Shown here in pieces: positions 3,042 through 37,557 of a DNA stretch of 64,000 nucleotides (position 1 is the stretch's first letter; each line of letters opens with the position of its first letter). A model generated the notes under the pieces. It made no database searches. It was not told the DNA's origin and saw nothing but the letters and a program-made list of their open reading frames with translations. Origin of the DNA: a bacterium (GTDB taxonomy: Bacteria > Bacillota > Clostridia > Oscillospirales > Oscillospiraceae); assembly GCA_963590455.1 (NCBI GenBank), contig CAVAPH010000001.1:4777-68776 (forward strand), in the 5' to 3' direction. The position numbers and the translations under genes are program-made.

Positions 3042-3126
3042 GTTTTTAATGCTCCTGATTAAAAAATAATTATAAGCGGATTATAGCGCGAACGGCGCAA
3101 AAATACAATAGCGGGGGAAAGCGGAC

Positions 3127-3159
3127 AAAAAAATTCGGGGCACACGAATGTACCCCGAA
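3127..3159 (-). terminator. Rho-independent terminator downstream of coaX
   Basis: On the minus strand: TTCGGGG..loop..CCCCGAA followed by seven T, 15 nt after the coaX stop. Confidence 0.75.
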
Positions 3160-3174
3160 GAGAAGCTGTGATGA

Positions 3175-4556: not shown

Positions 4557-4687
4557 ATTAAATTTACCTCCTGCTGTCGCTCTTTCAAGAAGATGCGGCG
4601 CAGGTTCATAGTAATATGAGACTGTTCAAATGTCAATACATATTTTAAAGTTTGCCCCTCCTCGTGTATACGAAGAGGGGCAAAAAA

Positions 4688-6139
4688 TCAGTTTGCCACA
4701 TTGTGGTGCATCCCGGGTGATGTTATATCGAGCGCGCGGAAGCTGTAGCCGTTTTCTGTGCCCCATTTGAGCACGGATTCTACCGCGGCGACGCTGAATT
4801 CTTTAATGTCATGCTGCAGCACGACAGCACAGCGCTTCCCGCTGCAGCCGCTGATAATATTAGAGGCGACTTTATCTGAGCTGCTCGCTCCGCCGGCATC
4901 GTTGCTGTCGACATTCCAGTCAAAATAGTGATAGCCCATTGAGTTTATCCGGCTCACGAGGCGCGACATTATCCCGGAGTTAAAGCTGCTGACGGTGTTG
5001 GAGCTGCCGCCGGGGAAACGGCAGAGCTGAGTGTAGCTGCCGGTGAGGGAGTATATCATGTCCTCGGTTGCGGTGAAATCGTCAAAAAAGCTGTCCTCGC
5101 TCGAATATATGCTGCTGTAATTATGCGAATAGGTGTGCACACCGATTGCATGCCCCTCGTTGTAGGCGCGCGTAATGGAGCTGCGGTACTGCTCACGGTT
5201 GCCGGTGACAAAGAACGTGGCCTTTGCACCGTATTTCGCCAGTACGTCCAGCAGCGCATCTGTATACGGGCCGGGGCCGTCATCAAACGTGAGATATATT
5301 ACTTTTTCATCCGGCGTGACCGTCTCAACGCCCGTGCTGCCGAACACAGTCACGTTTCGCTCTGCGCTCACAGTGTCGCCGAGTGAGTTCGTAATGCTGT
5401 AGGTGATGACATAGCTGCCCGGAGTATCTGAACGGAATGTGTCGCTTACCTTTACGTACGCGCCGTAGTCGTTGCCGTATTCGTCATACGCGGCGCAGCC
5501 GGGGTCTGCATAGTGCGGCCGTGCGCTTATTGTCACGCTGCTCTCGCCGAAGAGCTTTATTTCCGGTCTGCCGGAGGTGTAGCTGATCTGACGCGTGACC
5601 TCGGCGCGATTGCCGGAGCTGTCCGAAACCGAATATATTATGCTGTCTCCGCTCGTTTCGGTCTGCACCTCGGCGGTGAGATCTCCGTCATGCGCATCCT
5701 CGGCCCTGTAGCCCTCATCGATATAGCCCGTGAGCCAGCTGGGCTTATAATCCGGGTTTGAGCTGAGCGTTATAACGGGCGGCGTCGTGTCCACAACGTC
5801 AACAATGCGCTTTGTCGTGTATTCCTGGGAATTATACTGCACCGAGTACACAAGCGTGTAGCTGCCGAGATTGCCTGTGTCTACCTGTCCATCACAGCTG
5901 ACCTTCAGCGGCCGCGGAAACGTAAACGATCCGATTGCCACGGCCTTCACACCGGGGTCTTTGAATTCCTCGCCGTACTCCGTCTGCATCTGTGCGTCGC
6001 CGCTTATATAGAAGCGTACATGCCGCTTGTCCGACAGGAAAAACGAGCCCACCGCGAGTATAAAGACGAACACCGCAACCGCGATTACCGCGGCATCAGC
6101 CGTTCGATTATATTTTAATAAGTTCAGGAGCTTTTTCAT
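4688..6139 (-). CDS. Membrane-anchored polysaccharide deacetylase (NodB domain) with Ig-like repeats
   Basis: The likely start is ATG 6139 (MKKLLNLLKY.. then a TM anchor), not the track start 6238. It has three DUF5011/Ig-like repeats and a C-terminal NodB domain with TFDDGP and HTYSH motifs. Confidence 0.85.
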   Translation of the reverse strand: MKKLLNLLKYNRTADAAVIAVAVFVFILAVGSFFLSDKRHVRFYISGDAQMQTEYGEEFKDPGVKAVAIGSFTFPRPLKVSCDGQVDTGNLGSYTLVYSVQYNSQEYTTKRIVDVVDTTPPVITLSSNPDYKPSWLTGYIDEGYRAEDAHDGDLTAEVQTETSGDSIIYSVSDSSGNRAEVTRQISYTSGRPEIKLFGESSVTISARPHYADPGCAAYDEYGNDYGAYVKVSDTFRSDTPGSYVITYSITNSLGDTVSAERNVTVFGSTGVETVTPDEKVIYLTFDDGPGPYTDALLDVLAKYGAKATFFVTGNREQYRSSITRAYNEGHAIGVHTYSHNYSSIYSSEDSFFDDFTATEDMIYSLTGSYTQLCRFPGGSSNTVSSFNSGIMSRLVSRINSMGYHYFDWNVDSNDAGGASSSDKVASNIISGCSGKRCAVVLQHDIKEFSVAAVESVLKWGTENGYSFRALDITSPGMHHNVAN

Positions 6140-6261
6140 CGTCTGTCTGTGCCTCCGTTTTTGCGAACATAAGACGTCACGAGAGCCGAATTTGTTCTGC
6201 GTTGAACAGAGAAATGCGCGGGCGAATAACAGGCCCACGCATATTTTTATGTTTTATAAAT

Positions 6262-7314
6262 TCAGAGCTTATCCGTAAGCTTGTTGACATGCGGCTTGAG
6301 CCAACCGCTGATGAGATGCAGAATCCATGCCGTAACGAATACCTCTGCGATGGTTATCACGGCCTCAAGCCATACGTTGCCGAGCTTTCCTATGATCGTC
6401 AGGCAGCCCTCGACAAATATCATGTGCACAAGATAGACATCGTACGAGAGCGTATCCGTCGTGTCGAAAATCTTCTTTGTCCAGTCCGGCCACTTTACGG
6501 AGCGGGTGAGTATAAAGAGCGTGAGGAAGACGCCAAGCCCGAAGGTCACAACGCCGTACTCAAAGAGAAATACGAAAAGATAATATACCGCGGTGGATAC
6601 CTGCCCGCCGACACTGTCATAGTAATAAAACTTGTACCAGTAGGTCAGCACGGTCAGTGCCACGCCGACAACTGCGCTTATAAGCCACAGAAGACGCAGC
6701 TTTTTCTCATCCTTTATCTCCGGCAGGAAGAAGCCGATGACATAGCAGCTCAGCCAGTATGCCATGAAGTACGACTCATATGATTTGAGCAGCACCTCCA
6801 TCGCGGCAATGAGCAGAATCACGCCGGCGAGCATGCAGTTTTTTGCGCGGAAGTATTTCTTCAGATCATAGAGCGCGGGCGTTACCATGTAGCAAAGCAG
6901 GCAATGGCAGACATACCACAGGTGATGCACACCCTGCCAGCCGCTTCTTGTCAGCAGCATTTTATATATATTGCTGCCCGTCAGATTCTCCGGCGCAACG
7001 AAGTAATAGACAGGGATTATCAGCAGAAATACGCACAGATAATAATCAAGCAGTATTTTTACAAAGTTTTTCAGAACAAAGCTCACGCGGGAGCCGGGCT
7101 CATCAAAGCTCTTGTGTGCGTAGAGATAGCCGCTGAGCAAAAGAAAAATCTGCACTGCGGTTGAGAGAAGATTTGCCGTTATCTCATGCCCCGCCTGCTG
7201 GAACATGTGGCAGGTGAGAAGAGAGAACATGGCAAGAAAGCGCATCAGGCTGAGAGAATAGTTTTTAACGCGCGGAGCACGCACTGCTCCGTCCGCAGCT
7301 TGCAGTGTACCCAT
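6262..7314 (-). CDS. Acyltransferase family 3 (OafA/NolL-type membrane O-acyltransferase)
   Basis: 350 aa, about 10 TM. N-terminal LMRFLAMFSLLTCH resembles the Acyl_transf_3 signature with its conserved His. It lies next to the deacetylase. Confidence 0.7.
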   Translation of the reverse strand: MGTLQAADGAVRAPRVKNYSLSLMRFLAMFSLLTCHMFQQAGHEITANLLSTAVQIFLLLSGYLYAHKSFDEPGSRVSFVLKNFVKILLDYYLCVFLLIIPVYYFVAPENLTGSNIYKMLLTRSGWQGVHHLWYVCHCLLCYMVTPALYDLKKYFRAKNCMLAGVILLIAAMEVLLKSYESYFMAYWLSCYVIGFFLPEIKDEKKLRLLWLISAVVGVALTVLTYWYKFYYYDSVGGQVSTAVYYLFVFLFEYGVVTFGLGVFLTLFILTRSVKWPDWTKKIFDTTDTLSYDVYLVHMIFVEGCLTIIGKLGNVWLEAVITIAEVFVTAWILHLISGWLKPHVNKLTDKL

Positions 7315-7541
7315 TGGAGATCACGTCCGTTTCTGTATTCATGCATCAAATTTACCGTGATATTATAACAGCCGCCGCAGAAAAAAGCTATAGTTATATT
7401 TGAGCGAAAAAGCCCGCGCAAATCGCAATCAGCCGAGCAAGAGTGACATATTTTGCCCGACTGAAAAATATAAGCAAAAAACATAAGTAAAGAGATAAGT
7501 TAAAACAGCGCTAAGATTACCGGAGAAGAATATAAAAACTG

Positions 7542-7570
7542 TTGACAGATACTGCAAGGTAAAATATAGT
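7542..7570 (+). promoter_or_regulatory. Sigma-70-type promoter
   Basis: TTGACA (7542-7547), 17-nt spacer, TATAGT (7565-7570). It lies about 230 nt upstream of the lipoprotein gene at 7802. Confidence 0.6.
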
Positions 7571-7801
7571 AAAAACAGGATAAATAACAAGAAATGCATT
7601 AAATAAAAAATTTGAAAAAGGGCTGAGATGAATGAAGATCACAAAGTACAAAATAGAGGGGGCGATTCCGGTGGGCTGAATACAATATATAACTATTATA
7701 TTGCTCAAGGAGTGCAGATTTCGGGGTACGTATATACAGAATATTTGCAACCGTGATTTAGGACGCAGATATACATCAAAATTACAGGAGCGGCGGCCAA
7801 A

Positions 7802-9882
7802 ATGAAAAAAGTAATTTTATACGTGATTATTGCTGCACTTGCTTTGTCAATGCTGGCTGCCTGCGGAAACTCAGGTGAGACACAGCAGAAGGCGCAGGGG
7901 GAAGTCGGCAGTATCAGTTCAACCGGCGAATGGATAGGCAGCGGCAAATGCTATAGGGCAGAAAACGTTGAAAGTCTGCCAAATGTAACTGATATGCTGT
8001 GGATTGATCAGAATATATATTCCGTGGCCACATATGGTCAGGGACAATATGCACTGGCCAAAAACGGCAGTATTATTTACACGTTTCAGGGAAGTGTATA
8101 CGGGATTGATTCAACAGAAGCCGGAGAAATTTGGACGATCGAAGAGATATATACCGACGGAGAAGGCGACTACATTGTCAGCTGCTTGTCTGATGAAGGA
8201 ACGGTAATAAAGCAGTACAGCTTGGGATCGGAATACAGCGGGGAGAGCTTCAGCCAAAAAATGCGCCGTGCGGCAACAGCCTGTATATCGAATCATCGGA
8301 CATGCGCACGCTTGTCTGCATTGATGCATTGACCGGCGAAGTGTGTTCAGTCTCAATGCCGTCGGGTAAAGCAAGCATGGCAAGAGGGGCAGACGGTCAG
8401 ATTTATGCTGCCGAACAATCGGCGGACGGCGTTAAAGTGTATCTCTTTGACCGGCAGGAACAGAGCTTCACTCTCAAATTCGAGACTCAAAACGGCAAAC
8501 TGCTCGATGGCAGCGGCGACTTTCTGCTGCTTAGTGCAAACGATGACGGCCTTTATTCAATTGGCAATGACGGAAAAACAACGCCGATAATTATATGGGA
8601 CGAATGCGGCATCAATTTGGGCGAAATATACCGGCTATTTATCGAAAGCAACGGTGAAATGCTTTGCCACAGCCTTTTTGGGCTGAAAAAACTTGTGCCT
8701 GCAGAACCGGCAGAGATAAATATAAAAGAAAAACTGGAGATAGCCGGAATAGGTGCGTCATATGAGCTTCAATTGAAGGCAGCACAGTTCAACAATGCCA
8801 GCGATAAATATTATGTCAAGATAGTTGATTACTCTGATGACGGAGTGTTTGATGATGATCAGGCACTGACCAGATTAAATACGGAAATTCTCAGCGGGCA
8901 TGTTCCTGATATGATTTGCTTTAAAAATATTTCGCCTTATCCGTATATAAGCAATGCGCTGCTTGTAAATCTTAACGAGCTGCTTGCAAATGACGCGGAC
9001 ATTCATCGCGAGGATATAGCTGTCGTAAATGCACTGGAGCTGTCGGGAAAAATGTATTATATAAGCGATGGCTTTAATCTGGAGACATATGTCGCAAGAT
9101 ATTCCGAATTCGGCGACCATTTTGGCTGGACGCTTGATGAATATTCGGATGCCGACGACAGAAACGGCTCGGACACGCAAACTCTCTACAACATGACAAA
9201 GGAAGTCTTTTTAGAAAATCTTGCGTGCAGGTATTTCAGCCGGGCAGTGGACTGGAGCAATATGAGCTGTGATTTCAACACTGAAGATTTTGCCGAAATT
9301 CTTGAGTTGAGCGCAAAAATATCCGAAACACCGGAAGACTCGGACAGCATGGTGTACGGCTACGGCCCCACAATGGTGGGAACGGGTTATTTAACAGCGG
9401 CTGCCTCATGGGTGAACAGTGTTTGGAAGTTCGCGTACGAGGAAAAAATGGCCGGCTGCAGATTGAGCTGCATCGGCTGGCCATCGAGTGACGGAAGCTG
9501 CGGATCTGATGTCTATTTAGATAATCCCCTGGGAATTGTCAGCTGCGGCAGCAACATATCCGGCTGTTGGGAGTTTATAAAATATCTTCTGCTGAATTTC
9601 AATGAAAATAGTGACTTGCTGCCTATGTATATGCCGACACTTGAACGCGCGGCCGCCTATGCGAGAAACGACAGTAGCCTTCCCGTGCAGTTTACTCAGG
9701 CAGATGAGGAACGTTTTTTCAATCTTTTATCAGAGGTCAATAATACTGCGCTTTATGACGATACACTGAAAAATATAATAATGGAGAACAGCTCCGCATT
9801 TTTGAACGGAGACCGTTCACTGGATGAGACAATAAAATTAATACAGTCAAAAGCAAGCCTGTATTTAGCTGAGCTTGGCTGA
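7802..9882 (+). pseudogene. Frameshifted paralog of the large solute-binding lipoprotein at 42787..45267
   Basis: Track ORFs 7802..8332 (lipobox LAACGNSG) and 8302..9882 form one gene broken at an A6 run (8256-8261). Adding one A gives ..ESFSQKNAPCGNSLYIESSDMRTLVCIDALTGEV.. and a 693-aa product. The C-terminal half aligns by eye with the 826-aa protein (TEILSGHVPDMICF vs TEILAGNTPDILDL). Confidence 0.7.
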
Positions 9883-24885: not shown

Positions 24886-26238
24886 ATGTCCCACACTTTT
24901 AAAGGCGGCGTGCATCCTAATTACATGAAGGCACCGGAAGTTCCGATGACCGTCATTGCACCGCCACCTCAGGTAATCATCCCTATGGCACAGCACATAG
25001 GCGCTCCCTGCACCCCCACGGTCAAAAAGGGTGACTATGTGAAAATGGGTCAGGTCGTCGGCACAAACCCGGCACCCGTATCAGCTCCGGTACACGCTTC
25101 TGTGTCCGGCACAGTTGTTGCGGTAGAGCCTCGTCCCCATCCCCTGGGCGACATGATCATGTCCGTAGTCATTGAAAATGACTACAAAGATGAACTCTGC
25201 ACGGATATGGCCCCTCTCACTGAAGAGCAGCTGCACGACGGCGAAGCGATACTTGCACGTATCCGCGATGCCGGTGTCGTCGGTATGGGCGGCGCAATGT
25301 TCCCGACCGCATTCAAGATCCGCGGCGGTCTTGGCAAGGTCGACACGCTCATCATCAACGGCGCAGAATGCGAGCCGTATCTGAACGGTGACCATCTCAC
25401 CATGAAGAACTACCCCGAGCAGCTTCTCAAGGGCATTGAGCTTGTGCGCATTGCTTCCGGCCTTGACAAAGCCTACTACGGCATTGAGGTCAACAAGCAG
25501 GACGCTATAGACCTGCTCAATTCCTATCATCCCGAGAAGTACGGCATTGAGATCGTCCCCGAAGCGGTCAAGTACCCGCAGGGCGGCGAGAAGATGCAGG
25601 TTAAGGCAATCACCGGCCGCGAAGTCAAGCCCGGCGGAATCCCCTCCGGCGTCGGCTGCAACGTCGTGAGCACCCGTACCTGCTATGCCATCTACCAGGC
25701 CTGCTATGAAGGAAGACCGGTCATCGACCGTATCGTCACTGTCGCAGGCAGCGCACTTCAGGCACCTGTCAACGCACTCACCCGCGTCGGAACTCCGTTC
25801 GGTTATCTCGCAGAGGCATGCGGCGGTTTCGTCCGCACCCCGCGCAAGATAGTCCTCGGCGGCCCGATGATGGGTATTTGCGCAACCGACTTTGATGCAC
25901 CCACCATTAAGGGCACGGCCGGCGTGCTGTTCTTCACTGAGAAGGAAGACAAGCATGTTGAAGAGCCGACCTGCATCCGCTGCGGCAAGTGCATTTCCGT
26001 CTGCCCGATGAACCTTGAGCCTGTATTCATGTACATGTACTACAGCAAGGGTGACTTTGAGAACATGCAGAAGTATCACATTACCGACTGCTTTGAGTGC
26101 GGCAGCTGCGCATACAACTGCCCCGCAAGAATGCCTCTTACCCACGCGTTCAAGACGGCAAAGCTCATGTTCCAGGCCAAGGCAGCTAAGGAAAAGGCCA
26201 AGGCTGAAGCAGCAGCCGCAAAGGAGGCAAATAAATGA
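24886..26238 (+). CDS. rnfC: Rnf electron transport complex subunit C
   Basis: 450 aa. Two 4Fe-4S motifs, CIRCGKCISVCP and CFECGSCAYNCP. First gene of a cluster in C-D-G-E-A-B order. Confidence 0.95.
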   Translation: MSHTFKGGVHPNYMKAPEVPMTVIAPPPQVIIPMAQHIGAPCTPTVKKGDYVKMGQVVGTNPAPVSAPVHASVSGTVVAVEPRPHPLGDMIMSVVIENDYKDELCTDMAPLTEEQLHDGEAILARIRDAGVVGMGGAMFPTAFKIRGGLGKVDTLIINGAECEPYLNGDHLTMKNYPEQLLKGIELVRIASGLDKAYYGIEVNKQDAIDLLNSYHPEKYGIEIVPEAVKYPQGGEKMQVKAITGREVKPGGIPSGVGCNVVSTRTCYAIYQACYEGRPVIDRIVTVAGSALQAPVNALTRVGTPFGYLAEACGGFVRTPRKIVLGGPMMGICATDFDAPTIKGTAGVLFFTEKEDKHVEEPTCIRCGKCISVCPMNLEPVFMYMYYSKGDFENMQKYHITDCFECGSCAYNCPARMPLTHAFKTAKLMFQAKAAKEKAKAEAAAAKEANK

Positions 26239-27275
26239 ACGACAATAAAGTAAAAATCGTACTTGACGTTGCGTATCAGCCTCAGGTAAGAACCGAGACC
26301 GATACAAGACGCATCATGATGGACGTTATCATCGCCCTCATGCCGGCGCTTATCGTCTCCATCTTCCAGTTTGGCTGGCGTCCTCTCGGTGTCGCAGTGG
26401 TTTCCATGCTCTCCGCTGTGTTCTTTGAGTGGGCATACCGCAAGCTCCTCAAGAAGAGCAATACCATCGGTGACTGCTCCGCAGCCGTTACCGGTCTGCT
26501 CATGGCAATGACCATGCCTCCCACGTCTCCGCTGTGGCTCCCGATCGTCGGCAGCTTCTTCTCGATAGTCATCGTCAAGCAGCTCTACGGCGGCCTCGGC
26601 AAGAACTTCCTCAACCCCGCACTTGCAGGCCGTGCATTCCTCATTGCTTCCTATGCAAACCACATGACCTCCTGGGCAGTCCCCAACGGACTCAAGGGTG
26701 TTGTTGATGCAACCACCATGGCAACCCCGATGACTTACATGTACACCGGCGAGGCTATGCCCGAGTATCTCTCCTTCACCAACATGTTCCTCGGCAACAT
26801 GCCCGGCTGCATTGGTGAGATAAGCTCTCTTGCACTGCTCATCGGTGTTATCTACCTCTTCGTCCGCAAGGTCATAACCTGGCGTATTCCCACCTCCTTC
26901 ATCGCGACCGTCGTTATTCTTACCTTCGTATTCGGTCACGAGGGATACAGCCGCATCGAGTGGGTCGGCTACAACATCTTCGCAGGCAGCCTTCTCCTCG
27001 GCGCATTCTTCATGGCAAACGACTATGCTACCAGCCCTGTTACCGGCCCCGGCCAGATCATATACGGTATCGGCTGCGGTGCTATAACCGTGCTTATCCG
27101 TTACTTCGGCAGCTACCCCGAAGGCGTCAGCTATGCAATCCTCATCATGAACCTGTGCACATGGGCAATTGATAAGGCATTCTGCCGCCCGCAGTTCGGC
27201 GTCACAAAAGAGGATCTCGCCGCTCAGAAGGCAGCAAAGAAAGCCGCAAAGGCTGCGGCAAAGGAGGGCGCATAA
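26235..27275 (+). CDS. rnfD: Rnf complex subunit D
   Basis: 346-aa polytopic membrane protein. ATGA overlap with rnfC. NqrB/RnfD-like sequence. Confidence 0.9.
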   Translation: MNDNKVKIVLDVAYQPQVRTETDTRRIMMDVIIALMPALIVSIFQFGWRPLGVAVVSMLSAVFFEWAYRKLLKKSNTIGDCSAAVTGLLMAMTMPPTSPLWLPIVGSFFSIVIVKQLYGGLGKNFLNPALAGRAFLIASYANHMTSWAVPNGLKGVVDATTMATPMTYMYTGEAMPEYLSFTNMFLGNMPGCIGEISSLALLIGVIYLFVRKVITWRIPTSFIATVVILTFVFGHEGYSRIEWVGYNIFAGSLLLGAFFMANDYATSPVTGPGQIIYGIGCGAITVLIRYFGSYPEGVSYAILIMNLCTWAIDKAFCRPQFGVTKEDLAAQKAAKKAAKAAAKEGA

Positions 27276-27823
27276 TGAATAAAGTAGTAAAGCTTGCTCT
27301 CGTGCTGTTCCTTGTCTGCGCTGTTGTTGCAGGTATTCTGGGCGCAGTCAATCTCATCACTTCCGACAAGATAGCAGAGCAGGATGCACTGACGACAAAA
27401 GCCGCATATGCCGCCGTTCTCGCAGCTGACAGCTACGAGGATGTAGAGTTTGATCCGACTGCGGAAGGCTTTGAGACCATCGACAAGATAGTCAAGGCCG
27501 ATGGCGACAAGGGTTACGTTGTCACCACCACATTCTCCGGCGCACAGGGCAGCATCACCATGGCTGTCGGTGTCGATATGGACTACAAGTGCACCGGCAT
27601 TTCCATCATCTCGCACTCTGAGACTTCCGGCCTCGGCGCGAAGGCAGCAGATACCGGTGAGTTCGGTACCAACTGGCGTGCAGAGTTCGTCGGTGAGGGC
27701 GATGACATCGCAATCACCAAGAAGGGCGGCAACATTGACGCAATCACTGCCGCGACCATAACCTCCAACGCTGTTACCGGTGCCGTTTCCACCAGCATCA
27801 AGGCAGTCGAATCTTTGGGCTAA
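27275..27823 (+). CDS. rnfG: Rnf complex subunit G (FMN-binding)
   Basis: 182 aa. N-terminal TM anchor. FMN_bind-type region ..SHSETSGLG... TAATG overlap with rnfD. Confidence 0.9.
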   Translation: MNKVVKLALVLFLVCAVVAGILGAVNLITSDKIAEQDALTTKAAYAAVLAADSYEDVEFDPTAEGFETIDKIVKADGDKGYVVTTTFSGAQGSITMAVGVDMDYKCTGISIISHSETSGLGAKAADTGEFGTNWRAEFVGEGDDIAITKKGGNIDAITAATITSNAVTGAVSTSIKAVESLG

Positions 27824-27837
27824 GGAGGCAAAGCTGA

Positions 27838-28530
27838 ATGAATATCAAGAAACAGTTCAAAGAAGGCCTCATCACCAATAACCCCGTTCTCGTTCAGCAG
27901 ATCGGTATGTGCGCCACCATGGCAATCACGACCTCTCTGTTCAACGGTCTGGGCATGGGCCTGTCCGTTCTCATAATTCTCACCTGCTGCAACGTGGTTA
28001 TTTCCGCAATGCGCAAGATCATCCCTGAAGAGATACGTCTGGCAATATTCGTTGTCGTTATCGCGGGCTTTGTTACCATCGTTGACCTGCTGCTGCAGGC
28101 GTACGTTCCGGCACTGAGTTCTGCACTGGGCGTGTTCATTCCCCTTATAGTTGTTAACTGCATCATCATCGGCCGTGCAGAGGCATTCTGCCAGCACAAC
28201 CCCGTCGGCCCGTCCTTCTTCGACGGCATATTCCAGGGCCTCGGCTACACCTGCGTGCTTGTTATCATGTGCATCGTGCGTGAGTTCCTCGGCTCCGGTC
28301 GTTTCGGCGGCGGCCTTATCGACATCGCAAACGGCTTCCGCATCACTCTTGACGGTACCGGCTCCGGTATCCAGCTGTTCGCAGAAGACTTCGGCGCAAC
28401 CATACTCATCATGCCCTTCGGCGGATTCCTTACTCTTGGTATGCTGATCGCATTGATGCAGTACGCACTCAAGAAGTCCGCAAAGAAAAAACAGCTTGCC
28501 GAAGAAGCTGCAAAGGAGGCTGAAGAATAA
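27838..28530 (+). CDS. rnfE: Rnf complex subunit E
   Basis: 230-aa, 6-TM NqrD/RnfE-like protein in the canonical position. Confidence 0.9.
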   Translation: MNIKKQFKEGLITNNPVLVQQIGMCATMAITTSLFNGLGMGLSVLIILTCCNVVISAMRKIIPEEIRLAIFVVVIAGFVTIVDLLLQAYVPALSSALGVFIPLIVVNCIIIGRAEAFCQHNPVGPSFFDGIFQGLGYTCVLVIMCIVREFLGSGRFGGGLIDIANGFRITLDGTGSGIQLFAEDFGATILIMPFGGFLTLGMLIALMQYALKKSAKKKQLAEEAAKEAEE

Positions 28531-29114
28531 TGCTTACAAATATTCTCTCCATCTCCCTCGGTGCAATACTCATAAACAACTTCATTTTCTCGCAGTTCCT
28601 CGGCTGCTGCCCGTTCCTCGGCTGCTCCAACAAGGTTGACACCGCAGTCGGCATGGGCCTTGCAGTTACCTTCGTTATGGGCCTTGCATCCGCAATCTGC
28701 TGGGTTATCGACCAGTATGTCCTCGTGGCACTCGGCCTCGAGTTCCTGCAGACCCTCACGTTTATTCTTGTTATCGCAGCTCTCGTGCAGTTCGTTGAGA
28801 TGTTCCTGAAGAAGATGGTTCCGTCTCTCTACTCCGCACTGGGCATTTACCTCCCGCTTATCACCACCAACTGCGCTGTTCTCGGTGTTGTTCTTCTGAA
28901 CGTTCAGAATGGCTACAACTTCATCGAGTCCGTTGTCTACGGCATCACCGGCGGTCTCGGCTTCATGCTCGCTATCGTCCTGTTCTCCACCGTACGTGAG
29001 CGCGTTGAGTTTTCCGATTACCCCGAGTGCTTCAAGGGATTCCCGATCTGCCTTGTTTCTGCAGCTCTGCTTGCACTTGCATTCATGGGCTTCAGCGGCA
29101 TGCAGATATTCTGA
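28530..29114 (+). CDS. rnfA: Rnf complex subunit A
   Basis: 194-aa, 6-TM NqrE/RnfA-like protein. TAATG overlap with rnfE. Confidence 0.9.
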   Translation: MLTNILSISLGAILINNFIFSQFLGCCPFLGCSNKVDTAVGMGLAVTFVMGLASAICWVIDQYVLVALGLEFLQTLTFILVIAALVQFVEMFLKKMVPSLYSALGIYLPLITTNCAVLGVVLLNVQNGYNFIESVVYGITGGLGFMLAIVLFSTVRERVEFSDYPECFKGFPICLVSAALLALAFMGFSGMQIF

Positions 29115-29132
29115 TAGGGAGGACGTAACAGT

Positions 29133-29942
29133 ATGAAATCAATTCTTTTCTCCATCCTGGTGCTGGGCGTCCTCGGCGGCCTTTTCGGTGCGCTGCTCGC
29201 ATATGCCTCCAAGATATTCCACGTTGAAGTAGACCCCAAGCAGGAACAGGTTCGCGCCTGCCTCGCCGGTGCAAACTGCGGCGGCTGCGGCTACCCCGGC
29301 TGTGACGGTTACGCTGCTGCTGTTGCGGCAGGCAAAGCCCCCACCAACAAGTGTGTTGCCGGCGGCGCAGAGACTGCTGCCAAGGTCGCGGCAATCATGG
29401 GCGTTGACGGTGCTGCCGCTGAGAAGATGGTTGCATTCGTGCCCTGCTCCGGTACTGCCGGTCATGCACAGATGCGCTTCAACTACTCAGGTCCTGTTGA
29501 CTGCCGCGCTGCAATGCTGTTCGGCGGCAAGAGCAACAAGGAATGCACCTTCGCCTGCATTGGTCTCGGCAACTGCACCCGTGTCTGCCAGTTTGACGCA
29601 ATTCATGTTGTTGACGGCGTTGCAAAGGTCAACCGTATGCGCTGTGTCGGCTGCGGCGCCTGCGCAGATGCATGCCCGAAGAGCATCATAAAGCTCATCC
29701 CCGAGAGCCAGAAGGTCATGCCCGCTTGCAGCAACCACGACAAGGGCGCGAAGGTCATGAAGATGTGCGACTACGGCTGCATCGGCTGCATGAAGTGCCA
29801 GCGCGAGTGCCCTGCAGACGCTATCGTCGTTGTGGATAACCTCGCACAGGTTGACGCATCCAAGTGCGTCGGCTGCGGCCACTGCGCTGATGTCTGCCCC
29901 AGACATATCATCAACTGGTTCGGCAAGAAGAGCCAGAATTAA
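29133..29942 (+). CDS. rnfB: Rnf complex subunit B (polyferredoxin)
   Basis: 269 aa. N-terminal [11 protein letters not shown] Fe-S domain, then several CxxCxxCxxxCP motifs. Confidence 0.9.
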
Positions 29943-29974: not shown

Positions 29975-30010
29975 ACACGCAGAGTGCATCGCCGCTCTGC
30001 GTGTTCTTTG
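29975..30010 (+). terminator. rnf operon terminator hairpin 1
   Basis: 10-bp stem ACACGCAGAG / CTCTGCGTGT, then TCTTTG. Its loop and 3' arm contain the left copy of the 19-bp direct repeat. Confidence 0.6.
29987..30005 (+). repeat. Direct repeat, left copy (CATCGCCGCTCTGCGTGTT)
   Basis: 19/19 identical to 32605-32623 in the same orientation. Confidence 0.95.
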
Positions 30011-30097: not shown

Positions 30098-30673
30098 TTA
30101 TTTTGCTTGTATCTCAAGATTTTCAAGCTTTACCAGTACCTTCAGAATATTCTTAAGCATATCTGCCGGAGAGAGAGCAATATCGTTTGAAAGCCACCAT
30201 TCTATAATTCCGGACAGAGCAGATGCTTTTAACTGTATTGTAAACTCGTTTTCAAGTGCATCACTGTCAGAAAGCGGCTTTGCACCCTGCGTAATAATTT
30301 TGCTTATAACAGCTTTGAAACGCGGTTGAAAATAAGGGCTGTTTTCTTTTTTGAACAGGATTCTGAATTTATCTCTTTTGTCGTAAAGACAGGAAAGAAC
30401 TATCGAGAGACAATGCTCTATTTCGCTGAATTCGGGTGCATGCAAAAGTATTCCTGACTGTTCATACAGATCCTTAAGCAGGTCATCTATGTACTCATCA
30501 AGAAGAGCATACTTGTCGACAAAATGCAGATAAAAAGTTGAGCGATTAATATTCGCAAGCTCAGCAATTTCATTGATGCTTATTTTTTCAAAAGGCTCTT
30601 TATCAAGAAGCGAGTTAAAGGCATCCATGATATATTTTCTTGTTCGCAGGTAACGTCGGTCTGTTTTATTCAT
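30098..30673 (-). CDS. TetR/AcrR family transcriptional regulator
   Basis: Start moved to ATG 30673 (MNKTDRRYLRTRKYIMDAFNSLL..ISINEIAELANINRSTFYLHF, TetR_N HTH). Confidence 0.85.
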   Translation of the reverse strand: MNKTDRRYLRTRKYIMDAFNSLLDKEPFEKISINEIAELANINRSTFYLHFVDKYALLDEYIDDLLKDLYEQSGILLHAPEFSEIEHCLSIVLSCLYDKRDKFRILFKKENSPYFQPRFKAVISKIITQGAKPLSDSDALENEFTIQLKASALSGIIEWWLSNDIALSPADMLKNILKVLVKLENLEIQAK

Positions 30674-30704
30674 ATCAAATCTCCTAATAGACACTTTCTG
30701 AAAA

Positions 30705-30722
30705 ACGTTGCATATACAACGT
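30705..30722. promoter_or_regulatory. Candidate TetR operator 1 (16/18 palindrome ACGTTGCATATACAACGT)
   Basis: Imperfect palindrome 32 nt upstream of the TetR ATG. It shares the 9-mer GTTGCATAT with the second palindrome. Confidence 0.45.
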
Positions 30723-30785
30723 ACAGCAATAATCAACGATTGAAAGAGCAATACACAACTACTATAGTATAGACGACGTGATACT

Positions 30786-30802
30786 GATATGCAACACATA
30801 TC
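30786..30802. promoter_or_regulatory. Candidate TetR operator 2 (GATATG-N5-CATATC)
   Basis: 6-bp inverted arms. It contains GTTGCATAT on the minus strand (30787-30795). About 105 nt upstream of the hydratase-like gene. Confidence 0.4.
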
Positions 30803-30907
30803 TATTATTTAGCTTCACGAGAATTATCCTGACGGATGATTAAAAAAGTATTCAGCATCTTTGCTGAGCTTGTACGCGACAAAAATACAAGTGGAGGGAC
30901 GATAATT

Positions 30908-31873
30908 ATGACAGACCAAAAGTATCCGACGTTTACGAATGTTCATTCGGATATGAAGACTAAGCCGGAAAAGACGACAGATTCCTGGTATCTTAGAACA
31001 AATTTTATTGCAGACGGACATACTATAGGCTTTGAGTGGCATCAGATGGTGGTTCGCCCGCTGCCGATGTTCAGCATGAGCGTGATGGATTTCCTGGTGA
31101 TGGACGCGACGGATGATATATATCTTTCACATGATTTTTCAGGAAAAGCAAGCGCGTCTAACGGACCGGCAAAGGGGAAATGCTGCGTAAACTCAAAGTA
31201 CGGCAGCTTACAGGGTGACGAAAACAAGCTGCGGCTGGATTTGAAGGCGGATGACAGTGAGGTCCACGTGGAAGTGTATCCGCGAAAGGTTATACATAAC
31301 GGCTGCACAGGGCTGCTGCCGCTTGCGGGATTAAATTCGTATCAGTTCTCTTTCCCAAATGCCGATATAATCGGAACCGTGGTAATCAGAGGAAAAGCGT
31401 ATCGCGTAGAGAATGCTGTTGCATGGTTTGACCGTCAATGGACAAAGGCATCAATTAAAGATGTGGAAGCACCTCATTGGTTATGGCTCGGAATGAACCT
31501 GAACAAAGAAAAGACCGTTTCAATGTCTGCATGGGATGTTGTAAAGGACAGAGACAAGTGGGGCTGCTTTGCCACAATTGTTGACGAGAATGATATTCAT
31601 TCCCTGCACCCGATCGATATTAGCTACAGTGAGCTTTGGGACAGTAAGCTGACAAGTAATAAATATCCGAAGAGCTTTCATGTAAGCATTCCTACGGCGG
31701 ATACGGAGATAAATTTCACGGTACTGCAGAAAGATCCCGAATTTTTTAAGGGCTTCGGCAAGTTTGCGATGGGCGGAAGTCAGGCTCTTTGCAAGGCCAC
31801 GGGACATTACAAAGACGAGAGCGTTGATTCAATAGAGATTGTTGAAGTGCTCGGAGACTTTGCAGATAAATAA
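30908..31873 (+). CDS. CrtC/AttH-like lipocalin-fold protein (carotenoid 1,2-hydratase / kievitone hydratase superfamily)
   Basis: Start moved to ATG 30908 (GGAGGG upstream). AVAWFDRQWT and HWLWLGMNL match the AttH/CrtC hallmark W-F-D-x-x-W region as I remember it. No signal peptide. Confidence 0.65.
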   Translation: MTDQKYPTFTNVHSDMKTKPEKTTDSWYLRTNFIADGHTIGFEWHQMVVRPLPMFSMSVMDFLVMDATDDIYLSHDFSGKASASNGPAKGKCCVNSKYGSLQGDENKLRLDLKADDSEVHVEVYPRKVIHNGCTGLLPLAGLNSYQFSFPNADIIGTVVIRGKAYRVENAVAWFDRQWTKASIKDVEAPHWLWLGMNLNKEKTVSMSAWDVVKDRDKWGCFATIVDENDIHSLHPIDISYSELWDSKLTSNKYPKSFHVSIPTADTEINFTVLQKDPEFFKGFGKFAMGGSQALCKATGHYKDESVDSIEIVEVLGDFADK

Positions 31874-31899
31874 TAGGTCCGAAAGGAAAACAAAAGCGT

Positions 31900-32532
31900 A
31901 TGGAATTTTGCGGAACGATTCTCGTCGGTATCAGCGGAATTGCCTGGACGATTGTGTATATTGAGCTGATCCGGCAGGGAAACCGGGACAAGGCATGCGG
32001 AATGCCGCTGTTTGCTTTGACATTAAATCTGGCGTGGGAGTGGATCTACGGCATTGACGGCCTGTTTATCAGCAGGTCATTTATTCCTGCTCAATCTGTT
32101 GCCAATATAGCTTGGGCAGTTTGCGATATTTTCGTGATGATGACCTGGGTAAAATACGGTAAGCAGTATCTCCCCAAAAGAGCAGAGAAGTATTTTGTGC
32201 CATATACAATTTTAGCTACAGCCTTCGGCTTTGCCATGCAGCTAGCGCTCTATTTTAATTGTGAAACGGTTGAAATCGCTTCGATATACTCCGCATTTCT
32301 TCAGAACGCAGCTATGTCCGTGATGTTTGTCACGATGCTGTTTTCAAGAGATGACACCAGGGCACAAACCTTGCTGATAGCCGTCTGCAAATGGATTGGA
32401 ACACTGGCACCGACTGTTTACGGACAAATAAACGGGAACGCTGTGTCCGGATTTATTCTTATCACCGGGATTGCGTGCAGTGTTTTTGATATAATTTATA
32501 TTCTGCTGCTGTATGAAAGAAAACGGATATGA
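31900..32532 (+). CDS. 7-TM integral membrane protein, possible Pyr4/PaxB-type membrane terpene cyclase
   Basis: 210 aa with seven hydrophobic segments. RDKACGMPLFALTLNLAWEWIYG resembles the Pyr4/PaxB motif YGM..PL..N.AWE..Y (catalytic Glu). FDIIYILLLY in the last helix resembles the conserved Asp region. Comparison is from memory only. Confidence 0.4.
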   Translation: MEFCGTILVGISGIAWTIVYIELIRQGNRDKACGMPLFALTLNLAWEWIYGIDGLFISRSFIPAQSVANIAWAVCDIFVMMTWVKYGKQYLPKRAEKYFVPYTILATAFGFAMQLALYFNCETVEIASIYSAFLQNAAMSVMFVTMLFSRDDTRAQTLLIAVCKWIGTLAPTVYGQINGNAVSGFILITGIACSVFDIIYILLLYERKRI

Positions 32533-32604: not shown

Positions 32605-32623
32605 CATCGCCGCTCTGCGTGTT
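32605..32623 (+). repeat. Direct repeat, right copy (CATCGCCGCTCTGCGTGTT)
   Basis: 19/19 identical to 29987-30005. There is no complementary 5' arm upstream, so this copy is not a hairpin. Confidence 0.95.
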
Positions 32624-32714
32624 TTGCTATTGCTATATTTATATAATATTTCTTGACTTTGAAAATATAACGGAGTATTTTGAGAAAAACATAATAGCAC
32701 GGAGGCATAGTATT

Positions 32715-33191
32715 ATGATCTTTGCAAAGCTGAACGCAAACGGTGAGAAACACGTATATCCCGAAGCTATCGAGAAGGCGCTTGATTTTATAAGCAATAC
32801 TGATTTCATGCAGCTTAAACCAGGTAAATATATAATAGACGGCGATAAGATGTTTGCAAACGTTATGGATATGACGACGCACGGCTTTGAGGGCTCACAT
32901 CCGGAAGTACACAAAAAATACGCCGATCTTATGTATTGGCCGGAGGACGGTGAAATTATTGGTGTCGCGCCTAATCTCGGCAGCGAGAAAATATTCGAGT
33001 CACACCCGGAGAATGATATCGCCCTTCTTGAAGACGTTGTGAATGAAAGCTATATCACGGCAACCGCTGGCTGCTTCGGCGTGTTTTTCCCGTGGGATGC
33101 ACATCGACCCGCACTTATGATGGGCGATAGTCCTGCTACAAGCAGAAAATGCGTAATTAAAATCAGTATGGAGCTTTTTGACAGAGCTTGA
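32715..33191 (+). CDS. YhcH/YjgK/YiaL family protein (DUF386)
   Basis: Start moved to ATG 32715 (GGAGG upstream). MIFAKLNANGEKHVYPEAIEKALDFI..GKYIIDGDKMFANV..EVHKKYADL pattern of the family. Confidence 0.7.
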   Translation: MIFAKLNANGEKHVYPEAIEKALDFISNTDFMQLKPGKYIIDGDKMFANVMDMTTHGFEGSHPEVHKKYADLMYWPEDGEIIGVAPNLGSEKIFESHPENDIALLEDVVNESYITATAGCFGVFFPWDAHRPALMMGDSPATSRKCVIKISMELFDRA

Positions 33192-33212
33192 TGTTGAGCA
33201 TATAAAAAATAT

Positions 33213-33262
33213 AACGTTTGCCGCGAGCATATGAGTATAGAAGCATGCGGCAAGCGTTTTTT
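33213..33262 (+). terminator. Rho-independent terminator
   Basis: Stem AACGTTTGCCGC / GCGGCAAGCGTT (with mismatches) followed by TTTTTT. Confidence 0.7.
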
Positions 33263-33358
33263 AATTATTTCGTGATTATTTGCGGTTGACCGTATTATGT
33301 TTTAATGATAAAATAAAACGTCAAATTATGTACATGAAGTGACCTTCGGAGAGAGCAA

Positions 33359-34253: not shown

Positions 34254-35093
34254 ATGAGTATAATAAGTTTTGAAAATGTGCATTACACCTATCCGGGCGA
34301 TGAGCTTGAAAGCCTTTGCGGTGTAAGCCTGAATATAGAAAAGGGCGAATTTGTGACGGTGCTGGGCCATAACGGCTCCGGCAAGTCCACGCTCTCAAAG
34401 CACACCAATGCAATTCTTGTGCCGGATGAGGGCCGCGTGCTGATAGACGGGATTGACACCGCAGACGAGTCGCGCATTATCGATGTGCGCCGCCGTGTGG
34501 GCATGGTCTTTCAGAATCCGGACAACCAGATTGTTGCAAACGTGGTGGAGGACGATGTCGCCTTTGCCCCGGAAAACCTCGGGATAGAGCCTGCGGAGAT
34601 ACGCCGCCGTGTGGACGAGGCGCTAAAGCAGGTCGGTATGTACGAGCTGCGCGAGCATGCCCCGCATCTCCTCTCAGGCGGTCAGAAGCAGCGTGTGGCC
34701 ATTGCAGGCGTTCTTGCAATGCAGCCGGAGATAATCGTGCTCGACGAGCCGACGGCAATGCTTGACCCGCAGGGACGTCAGGAGGTTATATCCACGGTTA
34801 CGCGCCTGTGCCGCGAAAATGGCATGACAGTGGTGCTTATAACCCACCATATGGACGAGTGCATCAATGCCGACAGGCTTATAGTCATGTCAAACGGCAA
34901 TATAGTTGCCGACGGCAAGCCGGCCGAGGTCTTCTCCGATGTGGAGCTTATGAAGCGCGAGGGTCTTGACGTGCCGGAGACTACAAGACTGATGTACGAG
35001 CTCAACGCGGAGGGCTTCTCCCTGCCGCTGAGTGCGCTCAGCCCGGCGGAGTGTGCCGAGAAGATAGCAGAAAGCCTTAATATCCGCCAATAA
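34254..35093 (+). CDS. ecfA1: ECF transporter ATPase component 1
   Basis: Walker A GHNGSGKST, signature LSGGQKQRVAIA, Walker B IIVLDEPT. First gene of an A1-A2-T-truA arrangement. Confidence 0.9.
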   Translation: MSIISFENVHYTYPGDELESLCGVSLNIEKGEFVTVLGHNGSGKSTLSKHTNAILVPDEGRVLIDGIDTADESRIIDVRRRVGMVFQNPDNQIVANVVEDDVAFAPENLGIEPAEIRRRVDEALKQVGMYELREHAPHLLSGGQKQRVAIAGVLAMQPEIIVLDEPTAMLDPQGRQEVISTVTRLCRENGMTVVLITHHMDECINADRLIVMSNGNIVADGKPAEVFSDVELMKREGLDVPETTRLMYELNAEGFSLPLSALSPAECAEKIAESLNIRQ

Positions 35094-35125
35094 GCGGTAA
35101 AGTTTGAAATATCAGAGGAAAGCTA

Positions 35126-35986
35126 ATGTCAGAGATCAAAGTGGAGGGGCTGCGCCATGTTTACAGCGCGGGGACTCCTTTTGAAAAAGTCGCTTTAGAC
35201 AATATAAATATCACCGTGCCGCATGGTCAGCTTGTGGGTATAATCGGCCATACCGGCTCGGGCAAGTCAACGTTTATACAGCATCTCAACGCGCTTTTGC
35301 AGCCGACATCGGGCAAGGTCTACTGCGGCGGCAAGGATATAAATGCCGACAAGTACGCCCGCAAGGCCGTAAAGGGCGAGGTGGGGCTTGTGTTCCAGTA
35401 CCCCGAGTACCAGCTCTTTGAGGAGACTGTTTATAAAGACATCGCCTTCGGACCGCGCAATCTCAAGCTGGACGAGGATGAGATAGACGCCCGCGTCCGT
35501 GAGGCTGCAGGCTTCGTTGGCGTGGACGAGGCAATGTTTGAAAAGTCCCCGCTGGAGCTCTCCGGCGGTCAGAAGCGCCGTGTTGCTATAGCCGGCGTTA
35601 TTGCCATGCGCCCGGGTGTGCTTATTCTGGATGAGCCGACAGCGGGTCTTGACCCGGCAGGCTGCCGCCAGATAACAGAGAATATTCTCTCGTATCGCGA
35701 AAAAACCGGATCCACCGTCATAGTCGTCAGCCATAACATGGACGATGTCGCCGCCCTTGCCGAACGCATTCTTGTCTTCAGCCACGGCAGCATATTGATG
35801 GACGGCACGCCTGAGCAGGTTTTCAGCCAGCCGGAGCGTCTTACTGAGATCGGTCTGTCAGTCCCGCATGCGACGGAGATTGCAATGGAGCTGCGCCGCC
35901 GCGGTGTAAATCTCCCCGAGTCGATCTATACGCATGAGCAGCTCAAGGCTGCGCTGCTTGCCGCAAAGGGGGTGGCCGCATGCTGA
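35126..35986 (+). CDS. ecfA2: ECF transporter ATPase component 2
   Basis: Walker A GHTGSGKST, signature LSGGQKRRVAIA, Walker B LILDEPT. Confidence 0.9.
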   Translation: MSEIKVEGLRHVYSAGTPFEKVALDNINITVPHGQLVGIIGHTGSGKSTFIQHLNALLQPTSGKVYCGGKDINADKYARKAVKGEVGLVFQYPEYQLFEETVYKDIAFGPRNLKLDEDEIDARVREAAGFVGVDEAMFEKSPLELSGGQKRRVAIAGVIAMRPGVLILDEPTAGLDPAGCRQITENILSYREKTGSTVIVVSHNMDDVAALAERILVFSHGSILMDGTPEQVFSQPERLTEIGLSVPHATEIAMELRRRGVNLPESIYTHEQLKAALLAAKGVAAC

Positions 35987-36777
35987 AGGATGTTACGCTC
36001 GGTCAGTTCTTCCCGGGCAACACGATAGTGCACCGCCTCGATGCGCGCACGAAGCTGATTCTCGTAATAGTATATATTATCGCCCTGTTTCAGGCAGTCA
36101 ACTGGGGGTCTTATATTGCAATGACGGTTATTACCGCGCTCTGCATGTGGGCCTCGCACATCACGGTCGCAAATATATTCAAGGGTCTCAAGCCGATGCT
36201 GTTTATCATCGTGCTCACGGCGCTGCTGAATATATTCTACACGCAGGGCACGCCCATAATACCCGGCTGGATAATAACCTGGGAGGGCATTGCGCGCTCC
36301 GTGCAGATGGTGCTGCGCATTGTGCTGCTGATAACCGGCACATTTCTCCTGACCTATACGACAAGCCCCATCGCCCTCACGGACGGCCTTGAGATTCTGA
36401 TGAACCCGCTTAAAAAGATCAAGGTTCCTGTGCACGAGATGACCATGATGATGAGCATGGCGCTGCGCTTTATCCCCACGCTCATAGAGGAGACGGATAA
36501 AATAATGTCCGCCCAGAAGGCACGCGGCGCTGATTTCGAGACGGGCAATCTCATACAGCGCGCCAAAGCACTGCTGCCTATTATGGTGCCGCTTTTCGTG
36601 TCCGCATTCCGCCGCGCGGATGAGCTCGCCGTTGCAATGGAGAGCCGCTGCTACCACGGCGGCGAGGGCCGTACCCGCATGAAGCAGCTGAAAATGGCGG
36701 GCCGCGATTATATCGCACTGCTGCTCGGCGCAGTTGTACTCGCGGGCATGATAGTATTGAAAAAGCTCGGGATATGA
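35980..36777 (+). CDS. ecfT: ECF transporter transmembrane (T) component
   Basis: 265-aa CbiQ-like membrane protein. Overlaps ecfA2 by 7 nt. ARG motifs (..AQKARGADF..). Confidence 0.9.
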   Translation: MLKDVTLGQFFPGNTIVHRLDARTKLILVIVYIIALFQAVNWGSYIAMTVITALCMWASHITVANIFKGLKPMLFIIVLTALLNIFYTQGTPIIPGWIITWEGIARSVQMVLRIVLLITGTFLLTYTTSPIALTDGLEILMNPLKKIKVPVHEMTMMMSMALRFIPTLIEETDKIMSAQKARGADFETGNLIQRAKALLPIMVPLFVSAFRRADELAVAMESRCYHGGEGRTRMKQLKMAGRDYIALLLGAVVLAGMIVLKKLGI

Positions 36778-36789
36778 CGAGATAATAAG

Positions 36790-37557
36790 ATGAGAAATAT
36801 CGCATTGCGCTTAAAATATGACGGCAGTGCCTATCACGGCTGGCAGGTGCAGAAAAATGACGTCACTGTCGCCGAAACGCTGGACACGGCGCTCTCAAAG
36901 GTGTGCGGCCACCCCGTGCGCACGGTAGGCTGCGGCAGGACGGATGCCGGCGTACACGCGCTGCGCTACTGCGCAAATTTCCGCACCGACAGCCGCATCC
37001 CGATAGACAGAATACCGCTTGCCGTAAACACCCGTCTGCCGGGCGACATTGCCGTGTGTATGGCGACCGAGGCGGATGAGAGCTTTAACGCCATCTCCTC
37101 GTGCATAAAGAAAGAGTATATTTATAAAATACTAAACAGCAATATCCGGGACCCCTTTCTTGAAAAACGCGTCTGCTTTTACCCGCAGCAGCTGGATATG
37201 TCACGTATGAGCGCCGCGGCAAAAGCATTCGAGGGCACGCATGATTTTAAAGCCGTGCGTTCACTCGGCACAGAGACCAAGACTACGGTGCGCACGGTGC
37301 ACTGGTGCCGCGCAGAAAAAGAGGGCGACGTTATAACAATTTCAATCTGCGCAAACGGATTTCTCTATAACATGTGCCGCGCAATGGTCGGCACAATGGT
37401 CTATGCCTCGTACGGCAAGCTGGAGCCGGAGGAAATCCCCGAGCTTTTGGAGATAGGCGACAGGCGGCTGACCGGCCCCACGATGCCCCCGCAGGGGCTC
37501 TATCTCAATCGCGTCTGGTACGACGGACCGGTGGGAGAAATGTTTTTGAAAGATTGA
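36790..37557 (+). CDS. truA: tRNA pseudouridine(38-40) synthase
   Basis: MRNIALRLKYDGSAYHGWQ and the catalytic GRTDAGVHA motif. Confidence 0.95.
   Translation: MRNIALRLKYDGSAYHGWQVQKNDVTVAETLDTALSKVCGHPVRTVGCGRTDAGVHALRYCANFRTDSRIPIDRIPLAVNTRLPGDIAVCMATEADESFNAISSCIKKEYIYKILNSNIRDPFLEKRVCFYPQQLDMSRMSAAAKAFEGTHDFKAVRSLGTETKTTVRTVHWCRAEKEGDVITISICANGFLYNMCRAMVGTMVYASYGKLEPEEIPELLEIGDRRLTGPTMPPQGLYLNRVWYDGPVGEMFLKD

Follow-up and report, generated by a model that had tools for sequence, protein, structure and literature searches.

The terpene cyclases of the Pyr4 family, which include Pyr4, PaxB, AndB, and AscF of fungi and XiaH, TylF, GroF, DmtA1, and ZigF of bacteria, are compact seven-transmembrane (7-TM) proteins of ~210–240 amino acids (aa) that are known only as meroterpenoid builders of fungi and actinobacteria. 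Many of their relatives stand apart from such pathways. No other core gene was found at 690 of 1,050 fungal pyr4-like loci (PMC11109268), and for bacteria a survey of 2026 retained 264 of 1,107 Pyr4 homologs, only four Bacillota passing its filter, and judged the standalone genes, which lack terpenoid neighbors, "unlikely involved in meroterpenoid biosynthesis" (PMC13307353 and its supporting information). Some 840 of the 1,107 bacterial homologs have thus been set aside. A second group of proteins, the AttH/CrtC/kievitone hydratase family, acts on isoprenoid double bonds without a cofactor; kievitone hydratase adds water to the prenyl C=C bond of a prenylated phytoalexin, thereby detoxifying it, and also accepts xanthohumol and 8-prenylnaringenin (PMC5805349). 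Here we describe a locus in which genes for both kinds of protein lie beside a divergent TetR-type regulator. It is contained in a 64,000-nucleotide (nt) stretch of an Oscillospiraceae genome (assembly GCA_963590455.1, contig CAVAPH010000001.1, positions 4,777 to 68,776), referred to below as the window. Three genes sit there, with the rnfCDGEAB operon (24886..29942) on one side and a DUF386/YhcH gene on the other: tetR (30098..30673, minus strand, 191 aa), an attH-like gene (30908..31873, plus strand, 321 aa), and a pyr4-like gene (31900..32532, plus strand, 210 aa).

The product of the pyr4-like gene matched the Pfam family of Pyr4-like transmembrane terpene cyclases (PF25129) with 80.8 bits against a cut-off of 27 (E = 1.6e-22), and the same family was carried by 120 of 120 homologs among the matches listed. 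Its only other Pfam match at E ≤ 1 was to TspO (14 bits, under that family's cut-off); YhhN, EXPERA, and transporter families gave none. An AlphaFold2 model built with 76 homologs in the alignment consisted of seven helices, with a mean predicted local distance difference test score (pLDDT) of 93.5, and put two acidic residues at mid-helix: Glu47, contained in GMPLFALTLNLAWEWIYG of the second transmembrane helix (TM2), and Asp197, contained in SVFDIIYILLLY of TM7. The TM2 motif, N43-x2-W46-E47-x2-Y50, and the last-helix Asp are features shared with the characterized cyclases, and E47, D197, N43, and W46 were invariant across the 76 homologs down to 51% identity, with Y50 kept in at least 90% of them. 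When this family was aligned to Pyr4 with hhalign, a match of 200 columns was obtained (98.7% probability, E = 2.6e-16; the window protein itself is ~26% identical to Pyr4) in which GMPLFALTLNLAWEWIYG was paired with GMAILPLCCNFAWEFVYS of Pyr4 and GIACSVFDIIY with GLMCFSLDIAY. Glu47 and Asp197 thereby correspond to E63 and D218, the active-site residues of Pyr4 (PMC6486709). The Pyr4 sequence used was entered by hand and was checked by its full-length match to PF25129 (284.8 bits) and by the presence of E at position 63 and D at position 218. Loops 1-2, 3-4, and 5-6 are rich in Lys and Arg and are predicted, together with the C-terminus, to face the cytoplasm (positive-inside rule), which would leave Glu47 and Asp197 in the middle of the membrane. 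A library-wide hidden Markov model search with the family returned 1,378 clusters (50% identity) at E ≤ 1e-3, so the family is large. Sequence searches of the PDB with the protein and with the 76-sequence profile found no related entry, and no NCBIfam model matched either this protein or the AttH-like protein. At some other loci, tandem duplicate pyr4-like genes, 38–42% identical to the query, were seen by the main copy (L006, 9351-10615; L033, 9345-10594; L056, 8880-10117; L numbers denote loci in other genomes).

In Foldseek searches, the top matches of the 7-TM model were cystinosin (PQ-loop), SWEET, and the KDEL receptor, with a probability of 1.00 and template modeling (TM) scores of 0.5–0.65. 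Such neighbors would suit a small secondary transporter or exporter of SWEET/PQ-loop type, in which Glu47 and Asp197 would serve in proton coupling, TetR would act as an efflux repressor, and the substrate or product of the AttH-like protein, or a toxic lipophile, would be carried across the membrane. A divergent TetR gene next to one membrane-protein gene is also the dominant layout among relatives of the locus, and one homolog (P0096) was labeled a DMT-like permease by one source. The structural matches were, however, weak, with a best E-value of 7e-3 (none at 1e-3) and root-mean-square deviations of 5.5–7 Å. No Pfam transporter family matched at E ≤ 1, and the three-helix repeat of a 3+1+3 protein was not detectable when the N-terminal half was aligned to the C-terminal half with hhalign (0.2% probability), on which grounds membership in the SWEET, PQ-loop, or KDEL-receptor families was rejected. 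Given also the strong homology to proven cyclases, both catalytic residues included, and the MATE and ABC transporter genes found among the operon partners, which adjoin the 7-TM gene as separate pumps at some loci, we regard a transporter as quite improbable. As a separate observation, the Foldseek neighbors raise the possibility of a distant structural kinship between Pyr4-type cyclases and 3+1+3 transporters.

The AttH-like protein matched PF07143, the N-terminal lipocalin domain of CrtC, with 35.7 bits (cut-off, 22.5) and PF17186 (Lipocalin_9) marginally above its cut-off (26.8 versus 26.2 bits). Its AlphaFold2 model (pLDDT 90) showed the two-barrel, lipocalin-like fold shared by AttH NE1406 (2ICH; E = 1.2e-18, TM score 0.78) and the kievitone hydratase of Nectria/Fusarium (7A0T/7A0Q; E = 3.2e-17, TM score 0.76), the remoter Foldseek matches being a 25-phosphosteroid lyase and fungal Diels-Alderases; a PDB sequence search with the protein gave nothing usable. 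Across the protein and its 17 detectable homologs, D175 of the AWFDRQW motif (residues 172–178), W191 and W193 of a WLWLG motif, and W44/H45 were invariant. CrtC of Rubrivivax gelatinosus (RgCrtC) requires D268, W110, W283, and W285, and mutation of D268, W283, and W285 abolishes hydration (PMC12402844); the order of D175 followed by W191-x-W193 resembles its Asp-15/16-WxW spacing, a correspondence drawn from motif spacing rather than from an alignment with RgCrtC. The protein has neither a signal peptide nor a membrane anchor and is, for that reason, predicted to be cytoplasmic. It differs in this from CrtC, whose anchor and carotenoid gene cluster have no counterpart here, and from kievitone hydratase, a secreted, glycosylated fungal enzyme to which the bacterial, presumably TetR-controlled protein is 16–18% identical by structural alignment.

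The family assignments of both enzymes, taken alone, are nearly certain; the labels cyclase and hydratase are borrowed from the families and designate putative activities. A preliminary description of this DNA had proposed a seven-helix, 210-aa candidate of the Pyr4 family, with Glu47 in helix 2 and Asp197 in the last helix as counterparts of Pyr4 Glu63 and Asp218, beside a CrtC/AttH-like lipocalin-fold protein with an AWFDRQW motif, and the profile, model, and alignment results agree with it on all of these points, the profile search placing the 7-TM protein in PF25129 and not with YhhN, EXPERA, or a transporter. Its account of the gene order was likewise accurate in that the 7-TM gene is co-oriented with the attH-like gene, starts after a gap of 26 nt (31874..31899), and is divergent, together with that gene, from the TetR gene on the minus strand. 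No terminator-like site was found inside the gap, and the two genes are probably co-transcribed. The attH-like ATG (30908) is preceded, 9 nt upstream, by GGAGGG.

The surroundings of 7-TM genes were surveyed in a scan of one genome per species, which found a relative in 213 species; 80 loci were kept as species loci, and open reading frames (ORFs) within 6 kb of each match were called and clustered. Hosts were mostly Bacillota (Clostridia, Lactobacillales, Listeria, Erysipelotrichales), and others belonged to Bifidobacterium, Streptomyces, Arthrobacter, Chloroflexota, Sphaerochaetaceae, and Acidobacteriota; several of the carrier contigs derive from gut samples. TetR was the most conserved neighbor, lying within 300 nt in 35 of the 80 loci and within 2.5 kb in 49, of which 36 had it upstream and divergent. 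When 46 TetR-type neighbors were scanned, TetR_N was present in 45 and the TetR_C_8 ligand domain, as in the window's regulator, in 21. AttH/CrtC-like genes of two subfamilies were second commonest (13 of 80 loci), mostly upstream of and co-oriented with the 7-TM gene, in 2–4 tandem copies in L001, L002, and L014 and also in L084/L085. The pair was found in the close relatives L001, L002, L086, and L088 (in L086, assembly GCA_963599265.1, the arrangement of the flanking operons is near-identical to that of the window), in L011–L013 and L084/L085, where the 7-TM proteins are 45–54% identical, and, with the second AttH subfamily, in eight more species. Because AttH-linked 7-TM proteins span 80% to 42% identity to the query, the linkage is dispersed across the family.

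Viewed from the other side, 17 of 26 metagenome loci of the window's AttH subfamily had a divergent TetR gene directly upstream, and at none of the 26 was a 7-TM gene found next to the AttH-subfamily gene. Tandem arrays were seen in L002 (5088-10627; four AttH-like copies with TetR and 7-TM genes) and L084 (3000-7616; three copies with a 7-TM gene), and L101 (291-5993) had three successive TetR|AttH modules. In L082, where three AttH genes accompany the TetR gene over 2673-8150, the order TetR, AttH, AttH, and URO-D-family gene adjoins a Tn916-type integrase/excisionase, and in L081 a series of TetR, AttH, AraC, and AttH genes adjoins a transposase. The recurring units are therefore TetR|AttH, TetR|Pyr4-like, and the combined TetR|AttH(n)-Pyr4-like form that is present in the window. 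Either gene, 7-TM or AttH, is in these subfamilies mostly found next to TetR without the other, and so the pair is facultative. The gene pair of the preliminary description thus stands as regards its recurrence in other genomes, in 13 of the species loci, and falls as a dedicated two-step unit.

The protein has all the sequence and structure features of the Pyr4 family without the terpenoid-cluster context, both in the flanks of the window and among its relatives. No prenyltransferase, epoxidase, or terpene synthase gene lay within ~5 kb on either side of the cassette, as had been remarked earlier for the adjacent genes. Forty-five putative operon partners of 7-TM genes, drawn from the 80 species loci, were scanned against Pfam and matched 59 families, and among the best 25 listed of these there was no polyprenyl synthase, UbiA/ABBA prenyltransferase, terpene synthase, squalene cyclase, or P450. 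All characterized members of the Pyr4 family are biosynthetic (PMC13307353, PMC11109268), and the two genes might accordingly act late in a cryptic route to a meroterpenoid or terpenoid, with the prenyltransferase and epoxidase encoded at other sites of the genome, outside the ~5 kb per side that was annotated. Against this stand the partner families just listed, the published opinion on standalone genes cited above, host clades that are not known as terpenoid producers, and the apparent mobility of the 2.6-kb cassette as a unit complete in itself. A cryptic pathway has the least support of the alternatives considered, and we regard it as very improbable. What sets the locus apart from the characterized systems is the lack of a biosynthetic cluster, TetR as a constant neighbor, and hosts that are mostly anaerobic Bacillota and other non-producers.

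The partners that were found are of another kind. Flavodoxin_4 partners occurred in three loci, and Flavodoxin_2/NAD(P)H-quinone-reductase-like partners in Listeria (L021) and an Eggerthellaceae genome (L055); others were a flavodoxin-ferredoxin fusion, an FAD_binding_2/FMN_bind reductase, and oxidoreductases of the short-chain dehydrogenase/reductase and aldo-keto reductase types. Co-orientation of 7-TM genes with flavin/quinone-reductase-like genes was often seen (L021, 10627-11241, in Listeria cossartiae; L055, 9355-9951; L025; L052; L061; L029, 10625-11416; L046, 8237-9940). Such partners hint at a prenylquinone or quinol as substrate, and the recurrent quinone reductases would equally suit menaquinone, were the cassette to remodel endogenous polyprenyl lipids (undecaprenol, the side chain of menaquinone, or a C30 carotenoid/squalene-type lipid) and so tune the membrane. 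An archaeal AttH hydratase does act on endogenous membrane isoprenoids, making hydroxylated glycerol dialkyl glycerol tetraethers (bioRxiv 10.1101/2025.10.20.683597), CrtC hydrates carotenoids, and the 7-TM enzyme would itself be embedded in the membrane. Yet the distribution is patchy and looks accessory (low G+C, repeats, mobile-element neighbors), ligand-sensing TetR control would be unusual for housekeeping lipid synthesis, and no isoprenoid-synthesis gene is linked among the listed partner families. Carriers, moreover, include Bifidobacterium and lactobacilli, which are not known to make menaquinone or carotenoid. Remodeling of the cell's own lipids is consequently an unlikely role.

The regulator matched TetR_N (1e-8) and TetR_C_8 (4e-11). 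Its start is most likely at 30673, giving 191 aa, rather than that of a 233-aa ORF whose N-terminal extension is not seen in relatives; the shorter form is backed by full-length tblastn matches in L001/L002 (68–71% identity) and by the gene call in L088. The divergent control region between tetR and the attH-like gene (30674..30907, 234 nt) was scanned for promoters and contained a promoter-like site, TTGAAA-17-TATAGT, on the plus strand (30740..30768). It also contained two palindromic elements, GTTGCATATACAAC at 30707..30720 and GATATGCAACACATATC at 30786..30802, which have the 9-mer ATATGCAAC in common, in opposite orientation. Palindromes and -35/-10 region were kept in L088, L001, and L002, where the encoded proteins are only ~70–83% identical, and we infer that the palindromes are candidate TetR operators. 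With its divergent TetR gene, a short control region whose conserved palindromes, as candidate operators, overlap a promoter-like site, and its accessory distribution, the locus resembles TetR xenobiotic-response modules, from which it differs in its effectors: these are a pump or a classical modifying enzyme in the known modules and Pyr4-like and AttH-like proteins here.

Several features suggest an accessory origin. The cassette has a G+C content of 42%, compared with 53–54% in its flanks (window average, 52–54%), and is bracketed by an exact 19-nt direct repeat, CATCGCCGCTCTGCGTGTT, on the plus strand (29987..30005 and 32605..32623), the copies being 2,618 nt apart from start to start and the right one lying 72 nt past the 7-TM stop codon; 0.01 such matches would be expected by chance. 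The left copy provides the terminator hairpin of rnfB (ACACGCAGAG-N10-CTCTGCGTGT) with its loop and 3′ arm, and the right copy has no 5′ arm, which suggests insertion or recombination at the rnfB terminator. The left copy was kept with one mismatch in L088, the repeat also persists in a strain with 97% identity in the 7-TM and TetR proteins, and the close homologs of the cassette in L001 and L002 are flanked by different genes. Together with the integrase and transposase neighbors of the AttH loci in L082 and L081, these features make it plausible that the cassette was acquired as a unit. A corresponding empty site was not found: metagenome contigs scanned for exact matches to the junction predicted between the rnfB terminator and DUF386 gave none, an exact look-up of the DUF386 protein gave no match, and look-ups of RnfB returned only filled or too-short contigs. 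The low-G+C tract (0.40–0.45) also runs past the right repeat (32624-33358) and over the DUF386 gene, which weakens the case for the repeats as bounds of the whole island. That gene (YhcH/YjgK/YiaL, 32715-33191) scored 98.6 bits against an N-acetylneuraminate anomerase model, below the cut-off of 160, and may be a separate or earlier acquisition. The genes around the cassette, annotated for ~5 kb per side, belong to ordinary housekeeping operons, with rnfCDGEAB on the left and, on the right, DUF386, an S-adenosylmethionine-dependent RNA-methyltransferase-like gene, ecfA1/ecfA2/ecfT, and truA (34254-37557). A 50-nt direct repeat inside rnfB (29643-29692 and 29865-29914, 74% identity) coincides with the duplicated motifs of a 4Fe-4S ferredoxin (CxxCxxCxxxCP) and is not unusual for that gene.

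Taking these observations together, we consider it possible, although somewhat short of probable, that the three genes form an accessory, ligand-induced module that acts on an exogenous lipophilic compound by hydrating or cyclizing its prenyl or isoprenoid double bonds. A lipophilic ligand would bind the TetR repressor and switch the cassette on. Both enzymes would act as cofactor-independent general-acid (Brønsted-acid) catalysts, their target within a prenyl or isoprenoid group being a non-activated trisubstituted C=C bond or an epoxide. In the AttH-like protein, Asp175 would protonate the bond, Trp191, Trp193, and Trp44 would stabilize the cation, and a water quench would yield a tertiary alcohol; in the Pyr4-like protein, the intramembrane Glu47 and Asp197 would protonate the bond and an internal nucleophile would close a ring in a class-II-type cyclization. 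This division follows the known capture of the cation, by water in the AttH/CrtC/kievitone-hydratase family and by an internal alkene or hydroxyl in the Pyr4 family (PMC13307353, PMC12402844, PMC5805349). Each enzyme could presumably work alone, the two being alternative or consecutive effectors on one substrate class. Since the cell has no adjacent genes to make such a compound, the substrate would most likely be taken up from outside; examples are terpenoids, sterol-type lipids, and prenylated phenolics or quinones from plants or the diet. We find it more likely that the cassette transforms or detoxifies an exogenous compound than that it builds a natural product because the TetR partner is constant, substrate-making genes are absent, redox and efflux genes occur among the partners, paralogs form tandem arrays, the distribution is accessory, carriers are frequently of gut origin, and kievitone hydratase provides a precedent.

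A number of points weigh against this module. The AttH-like and 7-TM genes were paired in only 16% of the loci. Most characterized Pyr4-family enzymes use epoxy-prenyl substrates that an epoxidase provides, and no epoxidase gene was found here. Efflux modules, too, usually pair a TetR gene with one membrane protein. The best structural matches of the 7-TM model were transporters and receptors. The polar residues Q65, D76, Q114, Q135, and N136, invariant in the clade, differ from those of Pyr4, and for this reason the chemistry of the 7-TM protein may differ as well. Annotation around the cassette covered ~5 kb per side only. Finally, longest-ORF calls are unreliable at high G+C, and the Streptomyces and Arthrobacter neighbors mostly had no Pfam match, which limits what the survey says of the high-G+C Actinomycetota.

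A wider proposal, which we put forward as speculative and on balance doubtful, is that standalone bacterial Pyr4-like proteins in general are TetR-controlled, ligand-induced transformers of xenobiotics or lipids that would carry out acid-catalyzed ring closure on exogenous prenylated compounds, with the water quench of an AttH-like protein as the alternative outcome. One example would be a prenylquinol, formed by reduction through flavodoxin-like partners and then closed to a chromanol-type ring. The literature was searched for AttH-TetR modules and for Pyr4-like proteins of Bacillota, Listeria, and Lactobacillus without turning up a pertinent paper, nor was any paper found that ties orphan Pyr4-like genes to TetR, AttH-like hydratases, or flavodoxin-like reductases. 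The Pfam family annotation was already known, as was the view of standalone Pyr4-like genes as probably non-biosynthetic; what is new is the regulated context with TetR and AttH.

For the Pyr4 family, whose orphan members surveys have set aside, that context is a testable one, consisting of a presumably ligand-sensing TetR repressor, a candidate operator, and recurrent hydratase and reductase partners, and some of its carriers can be cultivated, among them Listeria, Blautia schinkii, Butyricicoccus porcorum, and Clostridium pascui. If the proposed activity on isoprenoid compounds of the diet or the host is true, it would represent a new way in which microbes transform vitamins K and E, sterol-like lipids, or prenylated compounds of plants, as well as a source of cofactor-free biocatalysts, and gut and food-associated Bacillota would gain a hitherto unrecognized route for dietary prenyl-phenolics, prenylquinones, and terpenoids.

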